The notes: generated by a model not told the origin, from the letters alone. Shown: positions 10,852 through 53,532, counted from the stretch's first letter. The stretch: DNA of 64,000 bases from Lachnospiraceae bacterium (GCA_004558185.1 SFDP01000024.1:9362-73361); one strand, 5' to 3'. Program-made: numbers and translations.

Positions 10852-10876
10852 GGTTTCTTCCTTTCTTTTATCCTTT

Positions 10877-13933: not shown

Positions 13934-14036
13934 ACGCTTAAATTCCTTATAAAAAAGAGTGAATATAAGCATGACTGAAAAATCTGCTGCTTACATTCAC
14001 TCTCTATTTCGGCTCTTTTAAAATGAAACTTAACCT

Positions 14037-15959: not shown

Positions 15960-15979
15960 ACTAACCCCTCTTTTCTTCT

Positions 15980-22031: not shown

Positions 22032-22046
22032 GAAAATCCCCCTTTC

Positions 22047-23507: not shown

Positions 23508-23610
23508 AGAGAGGCTAATCCCAACATTATCCTGTTGTCTGATCAGCCTCCTCTCTCATCCTTTATTCCTTTTTTCTAAAACATGACTTAATTTGTCGTG
23601 CCGCCCCCAT

Positions 23611-24321
23611 TTACCAGGGAATTGCGCCATATAAAAGCACTGCTGCCGCAGCACCTATTATGGGACCAACCAAAGGTACGATTCCGTATCCCCAGTTAGA
23701 ATCTCCCTTTGCCTGAATAGGCAGAAGCGTATGAGCCAGCCGGGGTCCAAGATCACGGGCGGGATTCAAGGCATAACCGGTCAGTCCGCCTAAAGACATA
23801 CCGATGGATACGATAATTCCAAAAACCAGAAAATTGCTCAAACCTACTGCAATGCCATCCACCTGTGCAATGCCCTTAATGGCAAACACCAATACAAAGG
23901 TGGCAATAGCTTCACTGACGATGTTTCTGGGCAAATTAGGAATGGCTGGACCTGTAGAAAATACGCCAAGCTTTGTTCCTGCATCCATGGTTGCATCAAA
24001 CTGATCCTTAAACAGGATATAAACCAGACAGGCTCCTACAAATGCGCCTGCAAACTGTGCAACAATGTATCCGGGAACCATTTCCCAGCCGATGCTTCTG
24101 TCTATGGCAAGAGCCAGAGTAAGCGCCGGGTTAAAATGGGCTCCTGATGCAGCTCCAAAAATATAAGCAGGAATCATAACCGCAAGTCCCCACGCCAGAG
24201 TGATTTGAATGGAACCTGCACCCTTCATTCCTGATTTATTCAGGGTAACGTTGGCCACTACTCCATCACCCAACAGGATAAGAATCATCGTTCCCAAAAA
24301 TTCTCCAATATATGGCAGCAT
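23611..24321 (-). CDS. glpF: glycerol uptake facilitator (aquaglyceroporin)
   Basis: Two NPA boxes (HFNPALT, LNPARDLG). Start at MLPYIG with RBS GGGAGG; the ORF-track start at 24369 would overlap glpK. Confidence 0.92.
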   Translation of the reverse strand: MLPYIGEFLGTMILILLGDGVVANVTLNKSGMKGAGSIQITLAWGLAVMIPAYIFGAASGAHFNPALTLALAIDRSIGWEMVPGYIVAQFAGAFVGACLVYILFKDQFDATMDAGTKLGVFSTGPAIPNLPRNIVSEAIATFVLVFAIKGIAQVDGIAVGLSNFLVFGIIVSIGMSLGGLTGYALNPARDLGPRLAHTLLPIQAKGDSNWGYGIVPLVGPIIGAAAAVLLYGAIPW

Positions 24322-24340
24322 AAGCAATCCTCCCTTCGTT

Positions 24341-25855
<1,515 letters not shown>

Positions 25856-29119: not shown

Positions 29120-31138
29120 TTAGTCTTTCTTCTGTTTTTTCCGTACAATAACCACTACTGCAATAAGAGCGATGATAACTACAAGAACCACGATGGCCGT
29201 TAAATTATTGGATTCTTCTGCCACCTCTGCTTTCGTTCCCTCTTCAGCTTCCACATTCTCTGCTTCTTCTGTTCCCGACATAGCTTCTGTTTCTTCTGCA
29301 CGCTGTGCAGCTTCCATAAGGATTCTTCCTGAACCATCGGTTGTGCTGTAATTCAGAAGAAGACCCGGATATTTTTCCAAAAGAGGAGAATTTGTTCCTT
29401 CTATCACACCACCTTCAAAGGCCTGTATATAGTTGGCAAGCACCATATAATCCTCCATGACATAATCCAGAACATTTACTGCATCATAAAACATATTGAA
29501 GCCATCACCCAGATCACGAAGGGTATAATTATAACCTGCCAGATTATATTTTGCAGTCAAGTCCAGGTCTTCATAGGCATTGGTTTCCTTGTTGTATACC
29601 TTTACATTATGTACGCGATACCCTCCCGTAGGGCTGCCAATCCATACTCCCTTGTCATCCTGCTGTGTAGATTCAGGCCACTGAGTATCTATGGAGTAAG
29701 TGATTCCGGATACCTGTAAAAATCCTCCGGATTCCTCTCCTGTTCCTGCTACCCGAGCTCCCCATTCCAGAGCATCTAAAAGCTGCTGTCCACTTACGGT
29801 TTGTAGACATGCCACATTACCAAAGGTATGAATATCCTTACATACTTTATAAGAAATATCTCCCGAAATGGCTTTATTTCGAATTCCCCCGCCATTCATT
29901 ACGGCCACATCTACATCCATATCCATGCTGTCAAACAGATAGTAGAGTGCATCTGCACAGAAGTCTCCCGTATTCGTTTCCTGAGAGCGTACCAGTCTGG
30001 TTTCTCCATCATAATTATCAAAGGTCAGTTTCGCAGAACCGATTACCGTACCCAGCTTAGCATCAATTTCAGCCAGCCATGCAGCCTTCAGCTCCTGTAC
30101 CTTTTTGTCTGCCTCATAGCCTAAGCCGGGTGCCAGTCGGGAAGAAAGTTCGTATCCTACAATTTCTGTTTCAGGTTTTCCATCATCATCAAGCACAGGT
30201 TCACCATTTTCGTCAACTACATCCTGTAAAATCTCAGATGCCTCAAGCAGCTCTGTAGAAATCTCACCGCTATCCCCATCAATTACCATTAAACCGATGG
30301 CATTAAAATAATAACCGGTCTGGGTAAGGAGAACCTCCTGCCCTTCCTTATCCTTTACCAATTTACCTTCTACCGTGCTATGGGAATGTCCATCAATAAA
30401 CGCATCCAGGCCGGAAAGACCGGATATGGTCTCTTCACTTGTCCAGGGCTTTGATGAAGGGTCGTCTCCCAGATGCCCCAGAGCAATTACCTTCGTTGCC
30501 CCCTCTGCTTTTGCCTCATCAATAGCCTTCTGTATATCCTGTTTAAGTGCTTCTCCTGTATCACCTGCACTTATACCATAAATGTAATTTCCAACCTCAT
30601 CCTGAAAGTAGGCCGGTGTAGACTTGGTAAAGGATTCCGGTGTGGTAATTCCCACAATGGCTACCGTTTCCTCCCCACAGGAAAAGAGCACATAACTGTC
30701 CAGTACATTTTTCCCTCTGACTCCATTTTCCTCCTCATAAAAATTGCAGGATACATAAGGGAATTCTGCCCATTCCACAGCATTCATACAGCCGTTCATT
30801 CCATAATCAAACTCATGGTTTCCCAGCGTAGCTAAATCATAGCCTGCGGCATTCATTAAAGAGATAACCGTTTTCCCCTTATCCATAGAACCATAAGCAG
30901 TACCCTGAATATGATCTCCTGCATCCACCAGCAAAACGTGTCCATACTCCTTTTCAAGCTGAGCTTTCAAAGAAGCAATAACGTCATAACTAAGCGGATT
31001 ATCAATGTAAGTATGTACATCATTGGTATAGAGGATTGCAATATCATTCGCAGTCCCTGCTTCGGCTGCTATAGTATCCACTGTATAAAAAGAGCACACC
31101 ATGATTATCGCAATTAAAAATGCTGCTATTTTTTTCAT
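29120..31138 (-). CDS. secreted bifunctional metallophosphatase/5'-nucleotidase with a C-terminal TM anchor
   Basis: Signal peptide MKKIAAFLIAIIMVCSF. Metallophosphoesterase motifs YTNDVH, VDAGDHIQG, GNHEFD. 5'-nucleotidase C-domain. C-terminal LTAIVVLVVIIALIAVVVIVRKKQKKD. Start set at 31138. Confidence 0.88.
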   Translation of the reverse strand: MKKIAAFLIAIIMVCSFYTVDTIAAEAGTANDIAILYTNDVHTYIDNPLSYDVIASLKAQLEKEYGHVLLVDAGDHIQGTAYGSMDKGKTVISLMNAAGYDLATLGNHEFDYGMNGCMNAVEWAEFPYVSCNFYEEENGVRGKNVLDSYVLFSCGEETVAIVGITTPESFTKSTPAYFQDEVGNYIYGISAGDTGEALKQDIQKAIDEAKAEGATKVIALGHLGDDPSSKPWTSEETISGLSGLDAFIDGHSHSTVEGKLVKDKEGQEVLLTQTGYYFNAIGLMVIDGDSGEISTELLEASEILQDVVDENGEPVLDDDGKPETEIVGYELSSRLAPGLGYEADKKVQELKAAWLAEIDAKLGTVIGSAKLTFDNYDGETRLVRSQETNTGDFCADALYYLFDSMDMDVDVAVMNGGGIRNKAISGDISYKVCKDIHTFGNVACLQTVSGQQLLDALEWGARVAGTGEESGGFLQVSGITYSIDTQWPESTQQDDKGVWIGSPTGGYRVHNVKVYNKETNAYEDLDLTAKYNLAGYNYTLRDLGDGFNMFYDAVNVLDYVMEDYMVLANYIQAFEGGVIEGTNSPLLEKYPGLLLNYSTTDGSGRILMEAAQRAEETEAMSGTEEAENVEAEEGTKAEVAEESNNLTAIVVLVVIIALIAVVVIVRKKQKKD

Positions 31139-31322
31139 CCGTATTAATCTCCTTTCTCTATTTGACTGATTCATATATAATGATACCAGGGTCAAAAGCC
31201 CCTAACTATGATACCTAGTGTAACGGTTTCTAAATAACTGCACTATTCACGCAGTATATTTTTCTGAGAGTGCAGGGCAAAAAACGTAGGCGTAGCGGGC
31301 TACGCTGAGGATTACTAGTATA

Positions 31323-31398: not shown

Positions 31399-32589
31399 TT
31401 AATCCAGAGCTTCTAAAATCGAATTTCCAATCGTTCCTTCCGGCATTTTTACCCCAAAGTTATCAGCAATCGTCGCTCCTATAACGGCGAAGCTGTCCGT
31501 TTCCGAAAGCTGTCCGCAGCCCTTAAGGGATTTGGAATAGGCCAGGAAAGGTACCTTCTCTCTGGTATGATCGGTTCCGGTGTAGGTGGGGTCGTTTCCA
31601 TGATCCGCACTGATGATTAAAAGATCATCTTCCCTTAACGCTCCCAGGAAGTCTCCCAGCTTCTCATCGAACTTTTCAATCTCTTTTGCATAGCCTTCAG
31701 GGTTTCTTCTATGTCCCCAAAGGGCATCAAAGTCTACCAGATTAACGAAGCAAAGACCGGTAAAATCTTTTCCTGCTATTTCAATGGTCTGCTCCATACC
31801 ATGTACGGAGGACTGTGATTTATAAGCCTCAGTGATTCCCTCTCCATCAAAAATATCTTTGATTTTTCCTACAGAGATCACATCGAAGCCATTCTCTTTC
31901 AGGGCATCCATTGCGGTTTTCCCAAAAGGCTTGAGGGCATAATCGTGGCGATTGCTGGTTCGCCTAAACTCCCCTTTTTTCTTGCCCACATAGGGTCTTG
32001 CAATGACACGGCCAACCTTCCATTCATCCTTCATGGTGATTTCTCTTGCGATTTCGCAGCAGCGGTATAATTCCTCAAGTCCAAAGGTTTCCTCATTTCC
32101 GCATATCTGCAGGACAGAATCCGCAGAGGTATATACAATCATATGACCGGTAGCGATTTCTTCCTCTGCCAGCTCATCCAGAATTTCGGTTCCGCTGGCA
32201 CTCTTGTTGCCGATAACAGTCCTTCCTGTTCTTTCCTCCAGTTCCCTGATCAGCTCCGGGGGAAAACCGGTATCGGTAAAGGTCTGAAAGGGAGTGGTAA
32301 CCTCCAGTCCCATCATCTCCCAGTGACCGGTCATGGTATCCTTTCCCTTACTCTTCTCCTTCATCTTCGTGTAATAGCCCAGGGGCTTATCCACTGCTGC
32401 CACCTGCTTTAAGGGAATGATATTGGCCAGCCCCAGCTTCTGCAGGTTGGGAATGACCAGATTTTCTACCGCTTCGGAAATATGACCCAGAGTATTTACT
32501 CCCACATCTCCAAAATCTGCAGAATCGGGCATTTCACCCACCCCCAGGGAATCTACTACAACAACAAAAATACGATTAAATTTTGGCAT
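31399..32589 (-). CDS. deoB: phosphopentomutase
   Basis: 396 aa. [26 protein letters not shown] and [10 protein letters not shown] are DeoB signatures. Confidence 0.95.
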
Positions 32590-32617: not shown

Positions 32618-33286
32618 CTAATACCCATTCGCTTCCTCATTCTTCATGAGCTTAATAATCCGGCTGGTTCCCAGGCGGTCTGCTCCCAGTTCAAGAAATT
32701 TTTCTGCATCCTCTAATGAAGCTATTCCACCTGCTGCTTTAATCTTTACCCCCGCACCGACATGAGCAGCAAAAAGCTCAATATCCTTAAAGGTTGCTCC
32801 TGCAGTGGAAAATCCGGTTGAGGTTTTAATGTAGTCGGCACCTGCTGCAGTCACAATTTCGCACATCTTCACCTTCTCTGCTTCATCCAGCAGACAGGTT
32901 TCAATGATGACCTTTAATAGATTATCTCCACAGGCTTTTTTTAACAGCCGGATTTCCTCCTCAATCAAATCATATTTTTTGTCCTTCAGCCAGCCTATAT
33001 TGATAACCATATCAATTTCTTTGGCGCCGTTGGCAAGAGCATCCTTCGTCTCAAACTCCTTTACCGCCGTAGTCATATAGCCATTGGGGAAGCCAATAAC
33101 CGTACATACGGTCATCCTGTCCTGTACATACTCCTTGGCCTGTTTAACAAAGCTGGGTGGAATACATATGCTTGCAGTCCCATAGGCAATGGCATCATCG
33201 CAAATCTGTTTGATTTCCTCCCAGGTAGCCGTCTGGGTAAGCAGAGTATGATCCACGTGCTTTACTATCTCTTTCTTATCCATCAT
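32618..33286 (-). CDS. deoC: deoxyribose-phosphate aldolase
   Basis: 222 aa. VDHTLL..., [10 protein letters not shown] and YIKTSTGF (Schiff-base Lys) are typical of DeoC. Confidence 0.93.
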
Positions 33287-33295
33287 AATCCCTCC

Positions 33296-34003
33296 TTACG
33301 CCAGTTCCAACGCAACTTCCATCATTTTTCCAAAGCCGATCTGACGTTCCTCGGCACTTAGGGCTTCATCACGATAAATATGATCAGAGACAGTGAGTAT
33401 ACAGAGCGCTTTCTTTCCGGCCTTTGCCGCATTCATGTAAAGAGCCGCTGCTTCCATCTCCACTGCCAATACTCCCATGCTTCTCCACAAATCATTGGCA
33501 TTTTTATTAGCATTATAAAAAACGTCTGAGGAAAGTACATTACCCACAACTACCTTTGTTCCCTGTGCCTTGGCAACATCTACAGCCTTTCTTAACAGAC
33601 CGTAATCTGCAATGGGCGCATAGGTCCCCGGCAGTCCATACTGCTCAGCAAAGCGGGAATCTGTACAGGCTCCCATCCCGATAATTACATCCATGACATT
33701 TACCTCATCCTGCAGCGCACCGGCAGAACCGATTCGAATAATCTGTTCGACTCCATAGAAATTGAATAATTCGTAGGAGTAAATACCAATGGATGGCATT
33801 CCCATGCCGCCTCCCATTACGGAGATCTCTCTTCCTTTATAGGTTCCGGTAAACCCCAGCATATTTCTTACCGAAGTAACCTGCCTGGCATTTTCCAGAT
33901 AGGTTTCCGCAATATATTTTGCCCGCAAAGGGTCTCCCGGCATTAATACTGTTTTTGCAAAATCACCTTCTTTTGCTGCGATATGTGGTGTAGGTATTGA
34001 CAT
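33296..34003 (-). CDS. deoD: purine nucleoside phosphorylase, DeoD (hexameric PNP/UDP-1) type
   Basis: MSIPTPHIAAKEGDFAKTVLMPGDPLRAKYIAE..., GMGMPSIGIYSYEL, AVEMEAAALY. Start at 34003 with RBS AGGAGG. Confidence 0.93.
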   Translation of the reverse strand: MSIPTPHIAAKEGDFAKTVLMPGDPLRAKYIAETYLENARQVTSVRNMLGFTGTYKGREISVMGGGMGMPSIGIYSYELFNFYGVEQIIRIGSAGALQDEVNVMDVIIGMGACTDSRFAEQYGLPGTYAPIADYGLLRKAVDVAKAQGTKVVVGNVLSSDVFYNANKNANDLWRSMGVLAVEMEAAALYMNAAKAGKKALCILTVSDHIYRDEALSAEERQIGFGKMMEVALELA

Positions 34004-34035
34004 AACGAATCCTCCTATACATTCTTCCATATTAT

Positions 34036-34190
34036 TTTCTGTAATTATTCAGAACCCCATTCGCAAAATCGCTGCTTGGCAGCTTTTCTTTTGCTCATGT
34101 GGCTACTTCGCCATATAAATTTACGATTCTGTTTGAATGCAAGCATTCACAGAATGTAAATTTGCATGGCCCTGAATAGTTACATTTTTC
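34036..34190 (-). promoter_or_regulatory. conserved structured 5' leader, copy A (candidate riboswitch or attenuator upstream of deoD)
   Basis: By hand alignment there are only 2 differences over ~75 nt against 44245..44319. A 12-bp closing helix pairs 34172..34183 with 34041..34052 (one C-A mismatch). The internal hairpin at 34121..34160 differs in sequence from copy B but keeps its pairing and the GCUUGC apex. Confidence 0.55.
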
Positions 34191-34791
34191 TTAATAGTCC
34201 TGCAAAATACTGGATACAGGGACCTGCCGTCAGAGCCGTAACTATAGTTACCATTCCTGCCCTTCCACCTAACGACCAGCCAAGAATAATCATGACAAAG
34301 TCAAAAATCATTTTCACCGTTCGAAACTCTTTCCCGGTTTTTTCGGCAAGAAGCAGAACCACTCCCGTAAAAGGGTCTACCCCGATATCCATCGTAATGA
34401 ACATAGCCACCCCAAGATAGAGCAGAAAACAGCCTGCAGCGGAAAAAGCGATCTGTGTTCCCGGCCCCTCTGCCTTCACCAGTATTTCATATAGTTTATT
34501 TCCAATATTAATACACATCCCGTAGGGAACAAAATAAACCAGAGTTCCCACACTGACGTATTTTCTTCCGGCAAAAAGCAGCAAAACAAGAATACCGCCG
34601 TTTACCGCATTGGATACCCAGCCAAGCTGCGACTGGCTCAGTCCAAAAAACACACGAATCCCGTCATAAACGATGCCCACCGAATCGTTGCCAAGACCTG
34701 TGCAATTATTAAAGGCCACTCCGATCCCAATCAGAAGAACTCCTACCAGAGCTGCCAGAATGGCGGAAAAAGAAATTTTTCCTTCTTCCAT
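34180..34791 (-). CDS. YczE-like polytopic membrane protein (putative transporter)
   Basis: 203 aa with about 6 TM helices. AFNNCTGLGNDSV and MDIGVDPFTG resemble the YczE/DUF6198 pattern as I remember it. Sits between the ABC permease gene and deoD. Confidence 0.4.
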   Translation of the reverse strand: MEEGKISFSAILAALVGVLLIGIGVAFNNCTGLGNDSVGIVYDGIRVFFGLSQSQLGWVSNAVNGGILVLLLFAGRKYVSVGTLVYFVPYGMCINIGNKLYEILVKAEGPGTQIAFSAAGCFLLYLGVAMFITMDIGVDPFTGVVLLLAEKTGKEFRTVKMIFDFVMIILGWSLGGRAGMVTIVTALTAGPCIQYFAGLLRKM

Positions 34792-34800: not shown

Positions 34801-35733
34801 TTATTTGGACCTTTCAAAAATTTTTCCGTTTGCCGCAGGAGTATGTCCTTTACCTACAAACAGAATTAGCGCTGCCAACGTGACAAGATAAGGAAGCATG
34901 GAAATCAGGTTTGGTGAGATAACGTTGGACATACTGATAATTGATTTTACCCCGCTGCAGAAGCCAAAAAGCAGACAGGCCTTCATGGCTCCTCCGGGAG
35001 AGAACTTTCCGAAGATTACGGCTGCAATGGCAATAAAGCCCTGCCCTACAATCACGCTGGGTCTAAACTGATTAATGGTTGCCAGGGTAACGAAGGCTCC
35101 CCCCAACCCTGCCATAAAGCCGGACAGGATCACACAGATATAGCGTACCAGATACACATTGATCCCCAGAGATTCACAGGCCTCGGGGTGTTCCCCTACC
35201 GCACGTAAATGGGTACCGAATTTGGTTTTGTAAAAGACAAACGATGCAATAGCTGCAAAAACAAAAACCAGATAAGCTACTGTATATACATTCAATACAT
35301 TACCTAAAAAGGAACCGGCTTCAAAAAAGCCTTCGAACATTTTGGGCAGCTTATTGGCCGAATTTAACGGCGGTGTATCCGATGAGCTGAAGATTGCTTT
35401 AGACAAAAACAATGCAAGCCCCGGACCGATGAAATTGATTGCCGTACCGGCAATGGTCTGGTCTGCATGAAACTGAATACAGACAATCGCATGAATCACA
35501 GCCAGTAACGCACCGGCCAGACCACCCAGAAGCCAGGCCACCCAGCCGTTTCCCACCACAAGTCCGGTTGCAGCACCTACGAAGGCACCAATGGTCATCA
35601 TTCCTTCAATTCCCAGATTAACCACACCGCTTCGCTCAGAAAAGCAGGAGCCAAGAGCAGCCAATAATAAGGGTGGGGTTGCTACCAGTGTAGCATTAAT
35701 TAAAAGACCTAAATTGCTGACCAATCCATCCAT
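34801..35733 (-). CDS. BMP-family (nucleoside) ABC transporter permease
   Basis: 310-aa polytopic protein. ...RSGVVNLGIEGMM... is typical of the branched-chain/ribose-type permease fold used by NupQ/RnsD-like proteins. Confidence 0.8.
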   Translation of the reverse strand: MDGLVSNLGLLINATLVATPPLLLAALGSCFSERSGVVNLGIEGMMTIGAFVGAATGLVVGNGWVAWLLGGLAGALLAVIHAIVCIQFHADQTIAGTAINFIGPGLALFLSKAIFSSSDTPPLNSANKLPKMFEGFFEAGSFLGNVLNVYTVAYLVFVFAAIASFVFYKTKFGTHLRAVGEHPEACESLGINVYLVRYICVILSGFMAGLGGAFVTLATINQFRPSVIVGQGFIAIAAVIFGKFSPGGAMKACLLFGFCSGVKSIISMSNVISPNLISMLPYLVTLAALILFVGKGHTPAANGKIFERSK

Positions 35734-36801
35734 CTATTTTGCCTCCTTTCTCTTAGCCATTCTAATAAACATTCTTTTAAATACCTGGGAAATGGCAATA
35801 AAGATAATGACACATCCCATAATAATATCGATCACTTCCTCCGGCGCTCCCACTATGGTCAGCTTGGAGCCTCCATATTTCATTGCTCCGTAGAATATAC
35901 CGGAAAAAATACAGCCAATAGGATTGGAGCCTGCAATCAGTGCCACTGTAATTCCCTCGAAGCCGTAGCCTTCCTGTCCGGCAAACTGACTGATACGTCC
36001 TCCCATACCCAATACCTGTACCGCACCGCCTATACCGGCCAGGGCACCAGAGATTCCCAAAGCTGTAAGGATGGATTTATTGGCATTGATACCGCCGAAG
36101 GTGGCTGCTTCTTTATTAAACCCAACTGCCTTCAGCTTGTAACCAAGAGTGGTTTTTTCAATAATTACCCAGATACCGACAGCTACAACCACTGCAAGAA
36201 GGAAGCCCCAATTGGCCCCATTGCAGTTAAGCGCCTTGAGCATTCCTTCCGGAAGGAGCAATCTGGCAGAATCCAGTACATTTTTAGTCGCCTCTCCGCT
36301 CCCCTCCTTATGCAGGGCATCTGTATTTACCATATAATTGGACAGATAAAAGGCCAGCCAGTTGAACATAATGTAAGATAAAACCTCATGAATTCCCCGC
36401 TTTACCTTCATCAGCCCCACCAGATAGGACCAGAAAAAGCCGGCTGCGGCTGCTGCCAGAATACACAGCGGTGCATGAATGATTGGAGGCAGTTTGACCA
36501 GAATACCTACTGCACAGGCAGCCAGCGCCCCTACCACGAACTGTCCCTCTGCACCGATATTGAACACACCCGTTCTCAGGGAAAAGGCTACGCTTAAGCC
36601 GGTAAAAATCAAAGGACTGGCATATACCAATGTCCAGATCATATATTTGGGTTTCCCGATAACACCATCAATCAATTTTCCATAGGCTACTGAGGGACTG
36701 ATTCCCGCCACTGCCAGGAAAATAGCTCCAATAATAAATCCGATAACGATGGCGATCAGTGTATACAGCACATTTACTTCCAGAATACTCTTCTTTTTCA
36801 T
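35734..36801 (-). CDS. BMP-family (nucleoside) ABC transporter permease
   Basis: 355-aa polytopic protein. ...RTGVFNIGAEGQF... (NupP/RnsC-like). Abuts the next permease gene and overlaps the ATPase gene by 4 nt. Confidence 0.8.
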   Translation of the reverse strand: MKKKSILEVNVLYTLIAIVIGFIIGAIFLAVAGISPSVAYGKLIDGVIGKPKYMIWTLVYASPLIFTGLSVAFSLRTGVFNIGAEGQFVVGALAACAVGILVKLPPIIHAPLCILAAAAAGFFWSYLVGLMKVKRGIHEVLSYIMFNWLAFYLSNYMVNTDALHKEGSGEATKNVLDSARLLLPEGMLKALNCNGANWGFLLAVVVAVGIWVIIEKTTLGYKLKAVGFNKEAATFGGINANKSILTALGISGALAGIGGAVQVLGMGGRISQFAGQEGYGFEGITVALIAGSNPIGCIFSGIFYGAMKYGGSKLTIVGAPEEVIDIIMGCVIIFIAISQVFKRMFIRMAKRKEAK

Positions 36802-38354
36802 GTCCGTTTACCTCCTGCCATTAAGAAGCCAAGCTCCTTCTCATCCGTTTTCTTACTTACAATTTCTTCTCTGGATACCGTACCTGTTATTTTCCCTTCG
36901 GAAATAACCATAATACGGTCAGATAAGCTCATGATCTCATCCAGCTCAAAGGATACCAATAGAACCGCACGATTCCTGTTTCTTTGCTCCACCAGATATT
37001 TGTGCACAAATTCAATGGCGCCTACATCCAGTCCACGGGTAGGGTTTACTGCAATCAGAAGCTCCTTATCATTGGTAATTTCTCTGGCAATGATTACCTT
37101 TTGCTGATTGCCGCCGGACAAAGTTGCTGCGGGCCGCCCCTCTGTTCCTCTGGGGCGGATATCGAACTTCTCCATCAGGGCGGTTGCATTCTGCCTGATT
37201 GCCTTTCGATTCAAAAATCCCTTATGGGCATAGGGCTCTTCATTAAAGTGCTGCAGAATCATATTGTCCTCATTGGAAAACTCCAAAACCAGACCATGCT
37301 TATGCCGGTCGGCAGGTATACTGGAAATTCCTGCATCAAAGGTTTCCTTGGGGGTACGATTGAAGACATCCCTGCCCATGACCCTTATCTCTCCTGATTC
37401 AGCCTTTCTCAAACCCGTAAGAATCTCTACCAGCTCTGTCTGACCGTTTCCATCGACACCTGCAAGTCCTACAATTTCTCCCTTACGCACATCCAGATCC
37501 AATCCGTTGAGTACCTCTACTCCCCGATAATCTTTGGCACGAATATTCTTTACCTCAAGAACGATCTCACCCGGTTCCTGTTCCTTTTTTTCTACCTTGA
37601 AGTTTACATCCCGGCCTACCATCATGGCGGCAAGATCATTCTCACTTATTCCCTCAACATCTACCGTATCAATATATTTTCCCTGGCGAATGATGGTACA
37701 GCGGTCAGAGGAAGCAGTGATTTCCTTCAGCTTATGAGTAATTAAAATGATGCTTTTCCCATCTGCTGTCAGATTCTCGATAATGGTCAGCAATCCTTCT
37801 ATTTCCTGTGGAGTAAGAGATGCGGTGGGCTCGTCAAGAATCAGCACATCTGCTCCCCGATAGAGTACCTTTAGAATTTCCACCCTCTGCTGCATACCTA
37901 CAGAAATATCTTCAATCTTTGCTTCCGGATCAATACTCATGTGATAGCGTTCAGACAGCTCCAGAATCCTTTTTCTGGCCGTATCCCGGTCTACAACCAG
38001 GCCTTTCACCGGCTCCATACCCAAAATAATATTGTCCAATACGGTAAACGGCTGGATCAGCATAAAGTGCTGGTGAACCATACCTATTCCAATGTCAATG
38101 GCATCCTTCGGACTGTTAAAGCTCACCTGCTTTCCATTGATGAAAATCTGCCCCTGGGTAGGCTTGTACAATCCGCACAGGACATTCATCAGCGTACTCT
38201 TACCTGCACCGTTTTCTCCCAGAACAGCATGGACTTCCCCTTTATGCACGACCAACTGAATATGATCATTTGCCGTAAAGTCACCGAATTTCTTCACAAT
38301 GTCCTTCATTTCAATCACAACCGCACTTTTGTCCATGTGACTTACTCTTCCCAA
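36798..38354 (-). CDS. nucleoside/sugar-type ABC transporter ATPase (two fused ABC domains)
   Basis: Walker A GENGAGKST. The second domain has GVDGNGQTE and LSGGNQQK. The TTG start at 38354 has AGGAGG 8 nt upstream; an alternative ATG lies at 38336. Confidence 0.88.
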   Translation of the reverse strand: MGRVSHMDKSAVVIEMKDIVKKFGDFTANDHIQLVVHKGEVHAVLGENGAGKSTLMNVLCGLYKPTQGQIFINGKQVSFNSPKDAIDIGIGMVHQHFMLIQPFTVLDNIILGMEPVKGLVVDRDTARKRILELSERYHMSIDPEAKIEDISVGMQQRVEILKVLYRGADVLILDEPTASLTPQEIEGLLTIIENLTADGKSIILITHKLKEITASSDRCTIIRQGKYIDTVDVEGISENDLAAMMVGRDVNFKVEKKEQEPGEIVLEVKNIRAKDYRGVEVLNGLDLDVRKGEIVGLAGVDGNGQTELVEILTGLRKAESGEIRVMGRDVFNRTPKETFDAGISSIPADRHKHGLVLEFSNEDNMILQHFNEEPYAHKGFLNRKAIRQNATALMEKFDIRPRGTEGRPAATLSGGNQQKVIIAREITNDKELLIAVNPTRGLDVGAIEFVHKYLVEQRNRNRAVLLVSFELDEIMSLSDRIMVISEGKITGTVSREEIVSKKTDEKELGFLMAGGKRT

Positions 38355-38370: not shown

Positions 38371-39213
38371 TCATATCATGACTATTTTTCTATATCCCTT
38401 CGCCCTGATCAGTTCCGCCAGCTCCTCTAAAAAATCCGGTGAGGGAATCTGATAGCCTGAATACTCCTTTCGAACGCCCATCGGCCGGTAGGCAATGAGC
38501 TTTATTCTTATGTCCTCTCTTGCTTTGCAGTCTGAAAGCAAGTCAGCAATGTGGCTCACACTCTCTCTTGCATCATACAAGTCCTGTACAACTACCACAC
38601 GTATCTCTTCCAGCTTACCCTCTGCCAAAAGAAAACGTACATTTTCCAACACCGTTTCATTGGAGAATCCCGTAATCCTTTCATGATCTGTCCGGTCAAA
38701 GGCTTTTATGTCCAGCATTACCCCGTCTGTTACCCGCAGCAGCTCCGGGTACTGACAAAAGGGAATAGTTCCGTTACTGTCAATCAGGGTTCCCAGGCCA
38801 GCCTGCGCAGCAAGAGTAAACAATTCGAGCAGAAACTCAGGATAGAGCATACATTCTCCTCCGGAAACGGTTACTCCGCGAATAAAGGGAATCTGATGCT
38901 TTACCACTTCGTATACCTCTTTTGCCGTCATTTCTCTTACCTTGGGTGAACTGCTGTGTGGGCAGACCCTGATGCAGGTATCGCAAAGCAGACATTTTTC
39001 CGAATGAAAATTTACTTTTTTATTCCTGTCAAATGTCAGGGCTTTGGCAGGACACTGGCTTACACAAATACCGCAGTTTTCACAAACCACCCTGGTTTCC
39101 GGATTATGGCAGTATTTACAGTTAAGGTTACAGCCCTGTAAAAATACGGCTGTTCGGTTACCCGGTCCATCTACGCTGCTAAAGGGAATGATCCGATTTA
39201 CTATAGCCTTCAT
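38371..39213 (-). CDS. yjjW: glycyl-radical enzyme activating protein (radical SAM, YjjW-like)
   Basis: GPGNRTAVFLQGCNLNCKYCHNPE (CX3CX2C), plus two ferredoxin-type clusters CENCGICVSQCP and CLLCDTCIRVCP. The start codon overlaps the GRE stop (ATGA). Confidence 0.85.
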   Translation of the reverse strand: MKAIVNRIIPFSSVDGPGNRTAVFLQGCNLNCKYCHNPETRVVCENCGICVSQCPAKALTFDRNKKVNFHSEKCLLCDTCIRVCPHSSSPKVREMTAKEVYEVVKHQIPFIRGVTVSGGECMLYPEFLLELFTLAAQAGLGTLIDSNGTIPFCQYPELLRVTDGVMLDIKAFDRTDHERITGFSNETVLENVRFLLAEGKLEEIRVVVVQDLYDARESVSHIADLLSDCKAREDIRIKLIAYRPMGVRKEYSGYQIPSPDFLEELAELIRAKGYRKIVMI

Positions 39214-40757
39214 CAGCGTACTTTTCTTTCCAAAATCTTCCCATTTTGGGCAGCCCCCAGTCCCAATGCAGTGGTATCCTGTAAAACCGCTTCTCCCTTA
39301 TCCAGCTTATCCATTTCTGAGCGTTTTACCAGATAGCCGGTAATACGAATAACATCACTGTCACTGCTATAGAAGGATAAATAACGTATATCCCGCTTAA
39401 AGGCTCCTTTAACAATATCCAGAACATATTCCGGATTTTTGTGTACCGTAAGATCAATGGGGAAAATATCTCCGGTGCCGGAAGGAAAATACCGGTGAAA
39501 TTTGCTGATGACCAGCAGCTGTTCAACCAGCTCTTTTGGCTCCTCTCCAATGGGAATTCTGGTTCCCGGGCTAATGCCCTTGTCCTCAGCTATTCCCACC
39601 TGGGCATGGAGAAGAAAATGGTTTTCTGTAACCTCGCAATATGGATTACAATGATTGCGATTAAAGGTATCAATAATATCCATAATCTCTACACCCAACT
39701 GATTGGCATATTCATCATGGCCAAAGCGTTCCTGCCTGCCCTCCTTTTCCAGGAGAGTATTCACGCATTCTGCCAAACCTACCAGGCCAAACATGGCCGT
39801 AAATCGATCTCTATGGATAAAGCCTTCTTTTGCCAGAAAATTATTTTCAAAAAATCCACTTTCCTCCACCTCGAAACGGATTCGTTGGTCCATATAGGCA
39901 GCCATGATTTCCATTACACAGGGAAGCTCTTTCTCCATAAACTGCCGGATATTCTCTGCCCGCTTTGCGATGTTGGAGAGAATAAGCCGACAAAGGGTAT
40001 AAGCCCCTCCACCTAAGGGAAGGCCGTTATAACAGCTTGCAATTACATATCTCTCACTCAATTCATTCCTGAACATTCTGTCATTGGCAAAGCTGGGCTT
40101 TGCACTGTGCAGAGCACATTCTACCGCTTTGAGTGCAAAGTCATCCTCCGTTATCCCCTCTTCATATTTCAGGGTAAGATTCGGTACGGCCTGCTCAAGC
40201 TGCTGCTCTACCTCCAGAATCAGTCTTCCCGCTTTTGTACTTTTAGGCCCGATATTGGCATGAGAAAAGGAATCCAGGATAGTCCTGTCCATATGGACAA
40301 AGAACAGCTTCAGGAGCTTCTTTGCCTCATCCTCAGTAACCGTATCGATATAGGGCTCCAGAAGAGTATCAAGCTGCCCGGTATAAACGGGGAAATTGGT
40401 TACACTGGGAACGTGCTTGTAAAAAATCAACAAATGGTTTAATACTTCATACAGATCCCTGGGTGGCTCCAACTGCAGAAATTTACTTCCCTCTCTTAAA
40501 AACTTTTCATAGTCAGGGATAATATACCGGGGGCGCAAAGGAGCATTTCCTTCTGCCAGATCACAGATACACTTTTCTCCATTTTCAGGCTCCAGAAGTT
40601 CCTTCAGTCCCTCCGGTAAATCAAGAACCTCTAAAAGTGAGTCCGCTGCTATGGCAAGATTAGCTACCTTCTGCTCATGCGTCAGCACAGGACTTTGGAT
40701 TATTCCCAATATCCTTTCTCTGGTCTCTTCTACTCTTTCCATTGATATTTTTCTCAT
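39213..40757 (-). CDS. yjjI: short (YjjI-family, DUF3029-like) glycyl radical enzyme
   Basis: 514 aa from MRKISMERVEE (GGGAGG-5 nt-ATG). Glycyl-radical fingerprint SDVIRITGYLVK lies about 40 aa from the C-terminus. Candidate thiyl loop VIASCYNGLPLGGG. The size and the coupled activase match the YjjI/YjjW pair. Confidence 0.75.
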   Translation of the reverse strand: MRKISMERVEETRERILGIIQSPVLTHEQKVANLAIAADSLLEVLDLPEGLKELLEPENGEKCICDLAEGNAPLRPRYIIPDYEKFLREGSKFLQLEPPRDLYEVLNHLLIFYKHVPSVTNFPVYTGQLDTLLEPYIDTVTEDEAKKLLKLFFVHMDRTILDSFSHANIGPKSTKAGRLILEVEQQLEQAVPNLTLKYEEGITEDDFALKAVECALHSAKPSFANDRMFRNELSERYVIASCYNGLPLGGGAYTLCRLILSNIAKRAENIRQFMEKELPCVMEIMAAYMDQRIRFEVEESGFFENNFLAKEGFIHRDRFTAMFGLVGLAECVNTLLEKEGRQERFGHDEYANQLGVEIMDIIDTFNRNHCNPYCEVTENHFLLHAQVGIAEDKGISPGTRIPIGEEPKELVEQLLVISKFHRYFPSGTGDIFPIDLTVHKNPEYVLDIVKGAFKRDIRYLSFYSSDSDVIRITGYLVKRSEMDKLDKGEAVLQDTTALGLGAAQNGKILERKVR

Positions 40758-40820
40758 CCTTACCTCCCATACCGGCATCCTTTTACCATCATTCTTTATC
40801 CCGTTTATTTGGAAATCTGT

Positions 40821-40851
40821 CCTGAGGCTTTGGACTGACCGCAGCCTCAGG
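40821..40851 (-). other. intercistronic stem-loop between the SBP gene and yjjI
   Basis: CCTGAGGCT-13 nt-AGCCTCAGG with no clear U tract. Could be a partial terminator or an mRNA stabiliser that sets the ratio of SBP to the rest of the operon. Confidence 0.35.
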
Positions 40852-40868
40852 GCAGCTATCCTCTTGGA

Positions 40869-41969
40869 TTAGTCTAATTCATAAACATCGCCGTATGCAG
40901 CTTCAAAGGCATCCTTTGAGTCAGGAACGGTGATTTCACCGGAAATAATTTTTTCCTTAACTTCATTTACCGCAGTAACTACTTCCTCCGGAAGAAGATC
41001 TGTAGTAGGTGCAATATCCACACCTTCATTTGTCAAATCATAAACAGCAACGCCACCCTTCAATGTGCCTTCTGCAAGCTGCGAAACAGTAGAATATACT
41101 GCATTATCAACACGCTTCATTGCAGAGGTAATTACCGTTTCGGGTGCCAGATAGCTCTGGTCACTGTCTACACCGATTGCCATGATTCCTTTGGACTGAC
41201 ATTCAGAGATCACACCGGTACCGGTAGCACCTGCAGCATGGAATACCACGTCAGCGCCATTGGTAACGAAGTTGGTGGTAAGGGTGGTTCCCATTGCCGG
41301 ATCACCAAAATTATTGGCATTACCCTGCTGAATCTTTGCATTAGGGTTAGCATCCAAAACACCTGCACAGTAGCCATAGCCAAACAGATGCATCACATCA
41401 CTTGCCATACCAAGAACGAAACCTACATTGTCCTTTTCGGTCATTAAACCTGCCACATAGCCAACCAGGTAGGAAGCCTGTTCCTGCTTGAAGGTAAGAC
41501 AGGTTACGTTGGCAAGATCTGCACAACTGCTGTCATCAATAATCGCAAAATTTACATCAGGATTAGCTTCTGCTGCTGCTCTGGTAGCATCTGCCAAAAG
41601 GAAGCCTACGCTGATAATCAGGTCATAGTCTTCATCAATAAAGGTTTCAATATTAGGTGCATAATCAGCATCGGTTGAGGAAGAAAGATAGTTTACTTCT
41701 ACCCCGAAGTCCTTTGCTGCCTTCTGTAATCCTTCCCAGGCGGACTGGTTGAAGGACTGATCCTCTACTCCGCCGGTATCTGTTACCAGTCCGATTTTCA
41801 GGCCTTCCCCGGACACTGCAGTATCCGTACCTGCTTCTTCAGTAACTGCACTTTCACTTCCTGTACTTTCGGTACCTGTGTTACCGTTTCCTGTGTTCTG
41901 ACCACCACACGCCACCAGGGAAAGTGCCATGGTAGTAGCCAATACTACTGCCAATAGTTTCTTTTTCAT
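40869..41969 (-). CDS. BMP-family (PnrA/Med-like) nucleoside-binding lipoprotein
   Basis: Lipobox LSLVAC-GG, a G/T/S/E-rich linker, then IGLVTDTGGVEDQSFNQSAWEGL, typical of BMP/PnrA substrate-binding proteins. Confidence 0.88.
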   Translation of the reverse strand: MKKKLLAVVLATTMALSLVACGGQNTGNGNTGTESTGSESAVTEEAGTDTAVSGEGLKIGLVTDTGGVEDQSFNQSAWEGLQKAAKDFGVEVNYLSSSTDADYAPNIETFIDEDYDLIISVGFLLADATRAAAEANPDVNFAIIDDSSCADLANVTCLTFKQEQASYLVGYVAGLMTEKDNVGFVLGMASDVMHLFGYGYCAGVLDANPNAKIQQGNANNFGDPAMGTTLTTNFVTNGADVVFHAAGATGTGVISECQSKGIMAIGVDSDQSYLAPETVITSAMKRVDNAVYSTVSQLAEGTLKGGVAVYDLTNEGVDIAPTTDLLPEEVVTAVNEVKEKIISGEITVPDSKDAFEAAYGDVYELD

Positions 41970-42033: not shown

Positions 42034-42738
42034 CTATTCCGTTTCCAGCTTCATCTGACTGTACTGCTTTCGGTTCATGCAAATTTTCCCGCCTTCCACA
42101 CTGATCCTCTCTTCCTTTTTCAGCTTCTGAATGCTTCGCTGAACGCTTCTGACATGAAAGCCCAGTCTCTCAGCCAACTGTGTCTGTGTTTTCTGCAGTT
42201 TCATCTGTCCCTTGCTGCCATTCTTTTCGTAGGATTCCACCAAATACAGCATTAATCTTTTTTTGCAGTTGGAAAAAAACCATTTGCGTTCACCGGAGGT
42301 CTGATTGCTTAATCCGTTCATCAGATTTTGTGTCCGCATAAATAACGCATTCACATCCTTTTTCATCCATTCCAGATAAACCGCTGAAGGAATAATCAGC
42401 ACCTCTCCGTCTGTAGCCGCCCGTATGGTTGCCCTGTATTCGGAAATACCACCGAAGATTTCAAAATCGCCTACTACGGACATCTGTGGGAATTCCATGA
42501 ACAGATAGACACTTCCTACCAAAGGTAAATCCAGGCCTATGGCCTTTCCCTTGATTATGATATAAACGTATCTGCTGGGAGCAGCGCTCTGAATCAGCAC
42601 CTCATCTCTCACCATCCGGGTATGCTTAATTGTGGAAATCACCTCATCCGGACAGTTTTCGAACAGACGACAGAGGTACTTGTGGTCATGCTCCGGCAAC
42701 TGTCCGATAATTTGTAAAAGCTGGTCTTTGGATTTCAT
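42034..42738 (-). CDS. Crp/Fnr-family transcriptional regulator
   Basis: 234 aa with an N-terminal cNMP-binding-like beta-roll and a C-terminal HTH (TQTQLAERLGFHVRSVQRSIQKLKKE). Confidence 0.8.
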   Translation of the reverse strand: MKSKDQLLQIIGQLPEHDHKYLCRLFENCPDEVISTIKHTRMVRDEVLIQSAAPSRYVYIIIKGKAIGLDLPLVGSVYLFMEFPQMSVVGDFEIFGGISEYRATIRAATDGEVLIIPSAVYLEWMKKDVNALFMRTQNLMNGLSNQTSGERKWFFSNCKKRLMLYLVESYEKNGSKGQMKLQKTQTQLAERLGFHVRSVQRSIQKLKKEERISVEGGKICMNRKQYSQMKLETE

Positions 42739-42951: not shown

Positions 42952-43005
42952 AGGCTGCTGTAAAACTGATCATCCAAGCCACAGATTTTCGCTTTACAGC
43001 AGCCT
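42952..43005. terminator. rho-independent terminator after cdd
   Basis: 13-bp perfect stem AGGCTGCTGTAAA...TTTACAGCAGCCT, flanked by T runs on both strands. Begins 4 nt after the cdd stop. Confidence 0.75.
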
Positions 43006-43008: not shown

Positions 43009-43437
43009 TTATGCCAGATTTGCCGGTCCAAATCCTAATGGAAGAAGTTCCTTTAGTGGATAAACATCATATTCTTTTTTATTTTTTGCCAGAATGATCT
43101 CAAACTCTTCCGGGCAGCAAAATTCCATCATTACCTGACGGCAGACTCCGCAGGGAGCTGCGTACTCCGTCAGACTTTCTCCCTTGCCCCCTACCACGCA
43201 GATGGCACGAAACTCCCTGATCCCTTCGCTCACTGCCTTGAAGAAGGCTGTACGCTCTGCACAATTGGAGGGTCCATAGGCCGCATTTTCAATATTACAG
43301 CCGGTATAAATGGTTCCATCTTTTGCCATAAGCGCCGCCCCTACTTTAAATCCCGAATAGGGGGTATAGGAAAAGGCTCGCTGTGCCAGAGCCGTTTCAA
43401 TCAGCTTCTCAATCACATCCTGCTTCAATGCTTCCAT
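43009..43437 (-). CDS. cdd: cytidine deaminase
   Basis: 142 aa with the zinc motifs NCAERTA and PCGVCRQ. Confidence 0.93.
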
Positions 43438-44209
43438 TCTCTTTCTCCTCCTTAATCAGTTTTCTCAGTGCCTCTACAGCTACCTGGATAGCCAGATCCG
43501 TATCATGAACTACCGGATTCTCCAATCCCTCTTTCTCTCTTTCCTGGTTGGCCACCACGAGGAAGCAGCTCCCCGCACGGACACGAAGATAATTTGCCAC
43601 AATAAACAGCGCTGCTGATTCCATCTCAGAGGCCAGACAGCCCATCCTTTTCCATGCCTCCCATTTGTTTACCAGCTCATAGCTGACCGGCTTAATTTCC
43701 GGCTCATGCTGACCATAGAAAGAATCCTTGCACTGTACCACACCTACATGGTACTGTACCTTTTTATCCTTTGCAGCGGCCACCAACGCATTGGTGATCC
43801 CCAGGTCGGCTACTGCCGGATACTCAATGGGTGCATATTCCTTACTGGTTCCCTCCATGCGGATCGCTCCCGTGGCAATCACCACATCTCCGCTCTTTAC
43901 CTTAAGCTGCATCCCGCCACAGGTACCAATACGAATAAACGTGTCTGCCCCTGACTTCACCAGTTCCTCCATGGCAATGGAAGCTGACGGACCACCGATT
44001 CCGGTGGAGGTCACACTTACCTTCACTCCTTCCAGATAGCCAGTGTAGGTTACATACTCTCTGCTGTCTGCAATCAGCTTTGCATCATCAAAATAGCGGG
44101 CAATTTTCTCACACCGTTTGGGATCCCCGGGCATAATGACATAGCGCCCCACATCTCCCTTACCTACCTGAATATGATACTGTCTACCGGTATCTTCTGA
44201 ATACTTCAT
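43409..44209 (-). CDS. udp: uridine phosphorylase-like PNP/UDP-1 family nucleoside phosphorylase
   Basis: 266 aa from [12 protein letters not shown] (RBS GGAGGG). [40 protein letters not shown]. Overlaps cdd by 29 nt. Confidence 0.85.
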
Positions 44210-44239
44210 AGCCTTATCCCTCCATAGCATTATTTTCCC

Positions 44240-44392
44240 GTAACTATTCAGAACCCCATTCGCAAAATCGCTGCTTGGCAGCTTTCCTTTTGCTCATGTG
44301 GTTACTTCGCCATATAAATGTTCAATGATATGTCCATTCCTGCAAGCAGGATGTTCATTTTATTGAACATTTGCCTGGCTCTGAATAGTTAC
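44240..44392 (-). promoter_or_regulatory. conserved structured 5' leader, copy B (candidate riboswitch or attenuator upstream of udp-cdd)
   Basis: A perfect 12-bp closing helix pairs 44381..44392 with 44240..44251. The core 44245..44319 is near-identical to copy A. The hairpin at 44319..44371 has a different sequence but preserves the pairing and the GCUUGC apex. Confidence 0.6.
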
Positions 44393-53426: not shown

Positions 53427-53447
53427 AGGCCTACCTCCTCTAAAACA

Positions 53448-53504
53448 AAAACCGTATATACACTGTATATCTAAATATATACAGTGTATATACGGTTTTG
53501 TCAA
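53448..53504 (-). promoter_or_regulatory. promoter (TTGACA-17-TATATA) overlapped by a perfect 23-bp inverted repeat; probable YtrA-type operator and terminator of the sda operon
   Basis: AAAACCGTATATACACTGTATAT-6 nt-ATATACAGTGTATATACGGTTTT (53448..53470 / 53477..53499). On the minus strand, -35 is at 53499..53504 and -10 at 53476..53481. As RNA the hairpin is followed by UUUUUGUUUU. Confidence 0.6.
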
Positions 53505-53532
53505 TAGGTTTTATTGCGTATTTTGATTTCTA

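Follow-up and report, generated by a model that had tools for sequence, protein, structure and literature searches.

The window analysed in the present work is a stretch of 64,000 nucleotides (nt) from Lachnospiraceae bacterium (GCA_004558185.1, SFDP01000024.1:9362-73361), and the system in question is the gene pair yjjI-yjjW (positions 38,371 to 40,757), coding for a small, oxygen-sensitive glycyl-radical enzyme of the YjjI family and for its activase of the radical S-adenosylmethionine (SAM) type, respectively. The pair belongs to a known orphan family and stands among ordinary genes for import and catabolism; what is new, as far as the searchable literature goes, is its operon-level tie to nucleoside use across many gut Lachnospiraceae, echoed independently in other lineages. 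The two genes are as follows:

39213..40757, minus strand: yjjI, YjjI-family glycyl-radical enzyme of 514 amino acids (aa), assigned by TIGR04040 and PF11230 matches, ribosome-binding site and homologue length
38371..39213, minus strand: yjjW, radical-SAM activase of 280 aa, assigned by its TIGR04041 match, domain hits and junction sequence

The open reading frame (ORF) containing yjjI is longer (39213-40778, minus strand, 521 aa) if it is read from an alternative upstream ATG at 40778; the start at 40757, giving 514 aa, was preferred because the sequence GGGAGG sits 5 nt 5' of this ATG and nearly all of the close homologues are 514 aa long. The protein matches TIGR04040 with 696.6 bits (cut-off 498.3; profile positions 2-497 of 497) and PF11230, the "YjjI-like" family formerly known as DUF3029, with 749.9 bits (profile positions 1-485 of 485). 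It harbors the glycyl-radical motif SDVIRITGYLVK, with Gly474 (RITGY) 40 residues before the C-terminus and aligned with Gly465 of E. coli YjjI; the candidate thiyl residue is Cys242, within SCYN. The closest species-level genome is a Lachnospiraceae metagenome-assembled genome, whose YjjI is 93% identical. YjjW, in turn, exceeds the cut-off of TIGR04041 (370.3 bits; cut-off 250.2), possesses the Pfam domains Radical_SAM, Fer4_12, and Fer4_7, and carries the motif CNLNCKYC (CX3CX2C) together with two ferredoxin-type CX2CX2CX3CP motifs, CENCGICVSQCP and CLLCDTCIRVCP; its scores remain under the cut-offs of the NrdG model TIGR02491 (42 bits; cut-off 126) and of TIGR02495 (77 bits; cut-off 131). 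A preliminary description of this DNA had recognised a 514-aa glycyl-radical ORF of the YjjI family, followed by a radical-SAM YjjW activase with two ferredoxin motifs. The profile matches and the motifs present in the translations, with the Gly and Cys residues intact, bear out both assignments, and the pair is a genuine and probably functional glycyl-radical system.

The same description had placed an ATGA overlap at 39213; the actual junction between the two genes is cgcTGATGaag, in which a single nucleotide is common to the TGA stop and the ATG start (TGATG). On the 3' side of the pair, the stop of yjjW lies 16 nt from the TTG start of the following ATPase gene, which is preceded by AAAGGAGG. 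On the 5' side, the spacer separating yjjI from the bmp gene measures 111 nt and folds at a minimum free energy of -34.3 kcal/mol (z -2.4); it embeds the following element right behind the bmp stop:

40817..40855, minus strand: intercistronic hairpin without a U-tract, from the fold of the 111-nt spacer

No terminator was called at the hairpin, which may stabilise the mRNA or work as a partial attenuator. No promoter-like site was found in the bmp-yjjI spacer, and neither promoter- nor terminator-like sites were seen around the yjjI-yjjW pair.

The pair belongs to a locus of about 15 kb, whose genes are all co-directional on the minus strand in the order udp, cdd, Crp/Fnr-like, bmp, yjjI, yjjW, ATP-binding cassette (ABC) ATPase, two permeases, yczE-like, deoD, deoC, deoB, and ecto-nucleotidase. 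Apart from the pair, the locus consists of the following genes:

43409..44230, minus strand: udp, uridine phosphorylase (TIGR01718, 331 bits; cut-off 280)
43009..43437, minus strand: cdd, cytidine deaminase (TIGR01354, 138.9 bits)
42034..42738, minus strand: Crp/Fnr-family regulator, 64 nt 5' of bmp (cNMP_binding and HTH_Crp_2)
40869..41969, minus strand: bmp, BMP/PnrA-family substrate-binding lipoprotein (PF02608, 272.6 bits)
36798..38354, minus strand: ABC importer ATPase with two ABC_tran domains and a TTG start (PF00005, two stretches)
35734..36801, minus strand: ABC permease 1, overlapping the ATPase gene by 4 nt (PF02653, BPD_transp_2, 142.9 bits)
34801..35733, minus strand: ABC permease 2 (PF02653, BPD_transp_2, 141.7 bits)
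34180..34791, minus strand: YczE-like membrane protein (NF052291, 64 bits, under cut-off)
33296..34030, minus strand: deoD, purine nucleoside phosphorylase (TIGR00107, 323 bits; NF004489, 360 bits)
32618..33286, minus strand: deoC, deoxyribose-phosphate aldolase (TIGR00126, 240 bits)
31399..32589, minus strand: deoB, phosphopentomutase (TIGR01696, 561 bits)
29120..31195, minus strand: 5'-nucleotidase or cyclic-nucleotide phosphodiesterase-like protein, secreted or anchored (partial UshA, Nt5e, and CpdB matches, all under cut-offs)

According to these data, the BMP importer set is complete, with a binding protein, a double ATPase, and two BPD_transp_2 permeases, and the products of udp, cdd, deoD, deoC, and deoB each exceed their NCBIfam cut-off. 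The gene order that had been described earlier, with the pair flanked at short gaps (111 and 16 nt) by the BMP gene on one side and by the genes for the ATPase and the permeases on the other, deoD-deoC-deoB downstream and udp-cdd upstream, is thus correct. Among the PDB relatives of the BMP protein are the 6y9u "Lipoprotein" set and T. pallidum TmpC (2fqw), with E-values from 1e-51 to 8e-49, and its best match is 7x0r "Lbp"; 6y9u and 2fqw are nucleoside-binding proteins of the PnrA type. From udp, cdd, deoBCD, and the adenosine-deaminase-like neighbours found in related loci, we infer that the ligand of the importer is a nucleoside. The nucleotidase-like protein has a signal-like N-terminus and a hydrophobic C-terminus, and it probably generates nucleosides extracellularly. 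The true start of deoD probably lies a few codons 3' of 34030, and promoter-like matches occur ahead of the Crp/Fnr gene at 42964, 42806, and 42784. With its lipoprotein, double-domain ATPase, two permeases, udp, cdd, and deoBCD, the operon is an ordinary importer of the PnrA/TmpC type; we know of no radical enzyme in the BMP nucleoside operons described so far (T. pallidum, S. pneumoniae, and B. subtilis nupNOPQ).

YjjI occurs in at least several hundred species-level genomes, since a scan in which each GTDB species was represented by a single genome gave at least 584 confirmed loci; it is very common in gut Lachnospiraceae (3772 clusters at 90% identity). The best 80 loci, all of the Lachnospiraceae type, made up the neighbourhood sample, on which the window proteins were mapped by tblastn. 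Their YjjI proteins are 72-93% identical, and their hosts span Roseburia, Enterocloster, Lachnoanaerobaculum, Anaerocolumna, Butyrivibrio, Dorea, Agathobacter, and others. In almost all of these genomes YjjI is found in a nucleoside locus of the type seen in the window. The bmp gene stands directly 5' of yjjI in 60 of the 80 loci, and yjjW directly 3' of it in 62. Where the full 10-kb flanks were available (34 loci), bmp and the ATPase gene (abcA) were found in every case, and udp, cdd, deoB, deoC, or deoD in 32; moreover, all the mapped genes (648/648) are co-directional with yjjI. The remaining ORFs were clustered, which revealed further recurrent neighbours, assigned by sequence motifs only, i.e., an adenosine deaminase-like gene (23 loci) and a uridine kinase-like gene (8 loci). 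The yczE-like gene is common yet inconstant (10 of the 80 loci), and weak homologues of the Crp/Fnr regulator were also retrieved, standing between deoB and yjjW in L022 (13814-14488) and L036 (13844-14521).

At least seven gene orders were recognised in these loci. The commonest is bmp-yjjI-yjjW-abcA (47 loci); in udp-yjjI-yjjW-abcA and perm2-yjjI-yjjW-deoC the activase gene is likewise near, and bmp-yjjI-abcA has no activase at that position. In the other three orders (perm2-yjjI-udp-deoB-yjjW-deoD-deoC, bmp-yjjI-udp-deoB-crp-yjjW-abcA, and perm2-yjjI-udp-cdd-deoB-(bmp)-yjjW-abcA), catabolic genes split yjjI from yjjW. This is the case of L018, L029, L050, L022, L036, L026, L037, and L033 (about 10001-17200 in each), where udp, deoB, and sometimes cdd, a Crp-like gene, or a second bmp intervene; the separation of an activase from its enzyme by catabolic genes is unusual for the glycyl-radical superfamily. 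The locus has therefore been rearranged repeatedly without YjjI ever being expelled from it, and this represents the strongest evidence for a functional tie.

These data also bear on the origin of the arrangement, since the pair had been described as "inserted" in the importer operon. The guanine-plus-cytosine (GC) content of yjjI-yjjW is 0.45, the same as that of the neighbouring genes, and it is flat over the region, so that there is no sign of a recent insertion. Furthermore, the arrangement of the window recurs in 80 species-level genomes and hence is not due to chance. The arrangement is old and compositionally native, and the term "inserted" is misleading.

For the family as a whole, 1.84 billion representatives at 50% identity were searched exhaustively with HMMER, and only 527 hits were obtained, about twenty of them full-length clusters of 490-532 aa. 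Both the glycyl-radical motif (R[IV][TS]G[YF]) and the cysteine motif (SC[YF]N) are kept in 17/17 full-length representatives with an intact C-terminus; two further full-length hits lacking the Gly motif were excluded as probably chimeric or frameshifted. The family is thus compact and uniform. Its diversity was explored through these representatives, exact-sequence look-ups, and mislabelled chromosomes in plasmid and phage collections. The recognisable members come from Gammaproteobacteria (Ferrimonas, Vibrio, Photobacterium, and Shewanella, among others), Actinomycetota, Oligoflexia, Fusobacteriota, Chloroflexota, many Clostridia, and one host judged to be an archaeon because of its eIF and NMD3 neighbour genes.

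Outside the Lachnospiraceae, a linkage to nucleoside genes was found in P0126 and its relatives, a second deep clade at 43% identity (three contigs, L092, L095, and L096), which has its own, differently ordered nucleoside cluster: inosine-uridine nucleoside hydrolase(s), a PNP/UDP-family phosphorylase, YjjI, YjjW, a major facilitator superfamily (MFS) transporter, Bmp-ABC-permease-permease, a second phosphorylase, and cdd. A metagenome scan with P0126 gave two usable loci only. In L092 (8399-9934) and L095 (3322-4857) a gene for a 511-aa sulfatase or type I phosphodiesterase-like protein stands between the phosphorylase gene and yjjI; it is absent from L096. In Haemophilus influenzae, the genes for YjjI, a radical SAM protein, and a NupC/NupG transporter lie inside one 3.1-kb region (PMC5609409). 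The adjacency of yjjW-yjjI to deoCABD in E. coli K-12, which the preliminary description had mentioned, does exist: the pair is on the minus strand, 257 bp from the divergent deo operon, and the arrangement in Salmonella is the same. In E. coli, CRP peaks obtained by chromatin immunoprecipitation lie within yjjI and in the yjjI/deoC spacer (PMC4287617). Lastly, L085 represents a weak case of linkage, with a Bmp ABC operon 6 kb from the pair.

The structure of YjjI was modelled with AlphaFold2 from 35 sequences (mean predicted local distance difference test, pLDDT, 91; predicted template modelling score, pTM, 0.90). In the model, Cys242 is placed at the tip of a hairpin (strands 237-240 and 244-247) and Gly474 at the tip of another one (strands 469-472 and 475-478), which is the usual geometry of the glycyl-radical superfamily. 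The top 22 PDB hits of a Foldseek search with this model are all class III ribonucleotide reductases (P. copri, S. thermophilus, and phage T4), and T. maritima NrdD appears from rank 25; the NrdD matches have E-values from 1e-16 to 1e-13, template modelling (TM) scores of 0.6-0.75, and 12-15% identity. Class III NrdD shares with YjjI the glycyl-radical barrel with the Cys and Gly loops on hairpin tips, and its substrate is ribosyl, as the gene context suggests for YjjI. At the sequence level, the Pfam family NRDD matches only partially (30.2 bits, residues 188-367), and protein and profile sequence searches of the PDB retrieved no solved relative. As for domains resembling those of pyruvate formate-lyase (PFL), PF02901 matched residues 174-255 at only 24.4 bits, none of the stretches being sufficient alone, and PF01228 gave no match.

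The comparison of the 17 diverse representatives points to Cys242 and Gly474 as the only universal catalytic candidates. In addition, several polar residues are invariant (E69, E311, E406, D130, D157, D392, H166, H384, R77, R257, R400, R471, and R511), and they are the same in the clades linked to nucleoside genes and in the unlinked ones. This invariance suggests one chemistry for the whole family, and from it we infer that these residues could bind a substrate that is anionic and perhaps phosphorylated.

Taken together, the gene context and the fold make it rather probable that YjjI and YjjW, as the radical system of a nucleoside-utilisation locus, act by radical chemistry on a ribosyl compound that stems from the nucleosides taken up, the chemistry being deduced from family and context. 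By analogy with the family, YjjW would use S-adenosylmethionine and its iron-sulfur clusters under anoxia to place a radical on Gly474; this would give rise to a thiyl radical on Cys242, which would abstract a hydrogen from the substrate. The latter, according to the gene context, would be a ribosyl compound imported or produced by the locus, i.e., a nucleoside or a 1- or 5-phosphate of ribose or deoxyribose. The substrate is probably a common metabolite and not a niche one, because the invariant residues are the same in clades without nucleoside neighbours, and it probably does not need a dedicated importer, since most lineages keep the pair alone. We put forward only tentatively that the step resembles that of ribonucleotide reductases, with hydrogen abstraction beside a furanose hydroxyl and loss of the neighbouring substituent; it would then amount to an elimination, if redox-neutral, or to a deoxygenation, if dependent on formate, and its product could enter the DeoB/DeoC branch, leading to acetaldehyde and glyceraldehyde 3-phosphate. 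That YjjI is a radical enzyme of a new, ribosyl-directed kind, a minimal relative of ribonucleotide reductases which removes or replaces the substituent at the 2' position of free nucleosides or pentose phosphates and so allows DeoC to split ribose units anaerobically, appears unlikely.

The observations that weigh against a radical step on a nucleoside-derived substrate concern the distribution of the pair, the fold of the enzyme and the completeness of the pathway. As to distribution, yjjI-yjjW stands alone in about 15 of the about 20 lineages sampled, nucleoside genes being absent from the surrounding 10 kb: Actinomycetota, Ferrimonas, the archaeon, Tepidibacter, Haloimpatiens, L089, Vibrio, Shewanella, L093, L101, Haliovirga, Microbulbifer, Chloroflexota, Proteus, and Aeromonas. 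Tepidibacter was counted as unlinked with pdp and a PRK-family (uridine-kinase-type) gene no more than 10 kb upstream, several unrelated genes and a recombinase gene intervening. Proteus keeps the E. coli neighbourhood smp-serB-radA-nadR with no deo operon there, so that the enterobacterial adjacency to deo may owe something to synteny; the E. coli case, being divergent rather than operonic and missing in Proteus, is therefore weaker evidence. Moreover, in L008, L012, L039, and L067, yjjI is followed by the ABC ATPase gene at 23-140 nt and the locus lacks yjjW; in these genomes either the activase is encoded elsewhere or another activase is used.

Such a distribution agrees with a different explanation, to which we assign a low probability: YjjI and YjjW would serve an anaerobic housekeeping function unrelated to nucleosides, sharing the operon in Lachnospiraceae for the sake of regulation, and the adjacencies in E. 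coli and Haemophilus would be accidents of synteny. The prevalence of solitary pairs, the synteny kept by Proteus without deo, and the identity of the invariant residues in linked and unlinked clades are all in its favour, as is the frequency of regulators belonging to the pair itself, namely LysR (Vibrio, Shewanella, Aeromonas, and L085), AraC (Microbulbifer), and a cyclic nucleotide (cNMP)-binding protein (Haliovirga). However, all seven gene orders of the Lachnospiraceae retain YjjI in the locus, some of them with udp and deoB interleaved; the nucleoside cluster of the P0126 clade, whose YjjI is 43% identical, is ordered differently; and the transporter of Haemophilus comes from an unrelated family of nucleoside transporters. 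In addition, about 4 of the 20 independent lineages are linked to nucleoside genes, for which a rough binomial, with an assumed (not measured) chance of 3% per lineage within 10 kb, gives a P of about 0.002 for four or more. The association between YjjI and nucleoside genes is thus recurrent and real, and it is not a family-wide rule; the earlier claim that the linkage recurs stands for the Lachnospiraceae, the P0126 clade and Haemophilus, and its generality was overstated in view of the isolated pairs.

As to the fold, PflD, the hydroxyproline dehydratases, benzylsuccinate synthase, and CutC follow close behind NrdD in the Foldseek ranking, and the likeness to NrdD, at 12-15% identity, is at the fold level only. 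Aligning YjjI with E. coli NrdD by hhalign gave a probability of 92.6% with the Cys loop out of register, and no NrdD family of NCBIfam matched YjjI. No cysteine follows Gly474 in the translation, which implies that the C-terminal Zn-ribbon is missing. Among the 17 representatives there is no second universally conserved cysteine. Cys65 had been considered as a second catalytic cysteine, the counterpart of Cys79 of T4 NrdD (catalytic residues Cys79, Cys290, and Gly580); it was ruled out, since it is not conserved and is replaced by His, Tyr, or Asp in 6/17. YjjI is, furthermore, about 100-200 residues shorter than NrdD and lacks the ATP-cone, and YjjW, in contrast to NrdG, is an activase of the PFL activating enzyme (PFL-AE)/ferredoxin-domain type. 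By the standard criteria (Zn-ribbon, second cysteine, and type of activase), YjjI therefore does not count as a ribonucleotide reductase.

The same features bear on the possibility that YjjI is a salvage reductase, converting imported ribonucleosides or monophosphates into deoxyribonucleosides for DNA; such an anabolic enzyme, a minimal relative of the class III reductases that uses an external reductant and works ahead of phosphorylation, would partly overlap with the radical step proposed above. NrdD as the closest fold, the position of YjjI inside an importer operon, and the stand-alone two-gene unit of most lineages, reminiscent of nrdDG, are what one would expect of it. Yet the second cysteine is not conserved, the protein has no Zn-ribbon and nothing, such as an ATP-cone, that would indicate an allosteric control of specificity, E. 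coli also has NrdD, and the linked genes are catabolic (udp, deoD, deoB, deoC, and cdd), the only kinase being the uridine kinase of 8 loci. We consider this conversion very improbable.

As to the pathway, the neighbouring genes already cover all the known steps of nucleoside catabolism, and no obvious gap is left for YjjI to fill. An unusual substrate would account for an extra enzyme in a pathway without a gap, and the deaminases and hydrolases in the neighbourhood funnel bases; hence, YjjI might act on the leftovers of the phosphorylases or on compounds that these do not cleave, such as uracil, hypoxanthine, or xanthine, or 2'-O-methyl and other modified RNA nucleosides. Little credence can be given to this idea, as the mapped loci include no nucleobase permease and no known gene for base degradation, the reductase-like fold of the model points to a sugar-binding site, and the width of the family, from archaea to marine Gammaproteobacteria, argues for a common substrate. 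The main rival of a radical step in nucleoside utilisation is the housekeeping function; salvage reduction and an activity towards bases or modified nucleosides have less support.

Neither a functional study nor an assigned substrate of YjjI/YjjW was found in the searchable literature, as previously maintained. Among the glycyl-radical enzymes of E. coli K-12, YjjI is, to our knowledge, the only one still lacking an assigned function. In vivo, Gly465 of the E. coli protein was labelled by a radical probe (bioRxiv 10.64898/2026.08.13.742689). For E. coli yjjI, FNR- and NarL-like promoter motifs were predicted in 2011, and the "nitrogen assimilation" role proposed in the same year had a co-expression basis only (PMC3228777); in Yersinia, yjjI is anaerobically induced.

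Besides NrdD and the PnrA/TmpC-type importers, two known systems can be compared with the pair of the window. The first one is YjjI/YjjW of E. coli (b4380/b4379), which resembles it in full-length identity (43%), in the positions of Gly (474 versus 465) and Cys (242 versus 236), in length (about 515 aa), in the overlap of the two genes, and in having deo neighbours; it differs in being divergent from deoCABD with an anaerobic regulation of its own, whereas the pair of the window is co-directional with, and embedded in, the genes of the BMP importer. The second one is represented by PflD and YbiW of E. coli, formerly orphan enzymes, which were assigned in 2024 the cleavage of 1,5-anhydrohexitol 6-phosphates (PMC12441222). 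Since they open a cyclic sugar phosphate within a transporter-linked catabolic cluster, they are a precedent for an enzyme that attacks the ring of a sugar phosphate by radical chemistry (PMC12441222; PDB 8id7, 8id0, and 8yjo are among the Foldseek matches). They are, however, PFL-like proteins of about 765-810 aa, similar to YjjI only at the fold level, and their hexitol-derived substrates enter through a phosphotransferase system (PTS), not an ABC importer.

In practical terms, the present data narrow the search for the substrate to nucleosides and their pentose phosphates and identify the Lachnospiraceae in which yjjI is hard-wired in a nucleoside operon. If YjjI carried out a reductase-like reaction on an unphosphorylated or sugar-phosphate substrate, radical ribose chemistry would extend past nucleotide reduction and nucleoside metabolism in the gut would include an extra step. 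The removal or replacement of a 2' substituent would mean that gut Lachnospiraceae and Enterobacteriaceae break down pentoses and nucleosides anaerobically through a branch not known so far. If, on the contrary, the link were incidental, YjjI of the window would be an ordinary member of a known orphan family.

Some further observations concern the surroundings of the pair in other lineages. In Vibrio, Shewanella, Aeromonas, and the genome of P0132, a convergent LysR-family gene lies right after yjjW (L085, 12466-13362; L090, 12465-13601; L091, 12441-13451; L104, 12724-13920). This gammaproteobacterial LysR may be a dedicated regulator, the ligand of which could reveal the substrate. In Haliovirga (Fusobacteriota), the cNMP-binding regulator beside the pair is divergent (L102, 9224-9895). 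In Shewanella piezotolerans, an aldehyde dehydrogenase gene is located directly 5' of yjjI on the same strand (L091, 8264-9784), which may hint at an aldehyde product. In the P0121 clade, the nearest one to the Lachnospiraceae (47% identity), yjjI-yjjW is followed by genes for an MFS transporter and a glycerophosphodiester phosphodiesterase, and not by nucleoside genes (L093, 12496-14572). In Salmonella Infantis SARB27, yjjI is followed, 247 nt downstream, by a gene whose annotated product has only 195 aa (L107, 8772-9359); its activase may be truncated, which fits a remark of 2011 that the Salmonella bicluster lacked yjjW (PMC3228777). The matches in phage collections correspond to Salmonella chromosomal contigs and two short unannotated fragments, and no bona fide phage-borne yjjI was found among them.

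Within the window, the only two matches to the Clostridiales-1 RNA motif (RF01699) each lie 5' of a nucleoside phosphorylase gene, on the coding strand:

34015..34179, minus strand: Clostridiales-1 RNA motif, directly 5' of deoD (48.5 bits; gathering score 48)
44207..44383, minus strand: second Clostridiales-1-like RNA, directly 5' of udp (43.5 bits, E-value 8e-7; under the gathering score of 48)

Their placement looks like that of a 5' leader; the motif was listed as not cis-regulatory by Weinberg et al. (2010). Rfam scans of nine related Lachnospiraceae loci retrieved no copy, and an nhmmer search built on the two copies of the window gave a single weak and unrelated match. Two unrelated microRNA models also match at 53436-53511, on both strands (31-34 bits versus gathering scores of 76-81); most likely, this is a simple palindromic hairpin and the matches are not meaningful.

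Finally, about 5 kb past the nucleotidase gene there is a glycerol cluster (20766-25837) with glpK and genes for a type 2 glycerol-3-phosphate oxidase-like protein and a thioredoxin-reductase-like flavoprotein; together with glgB (14037-15959) and a sialidase-like gene (48286-50214), it belongs to the typical carbohydrate genes of gut commensals.

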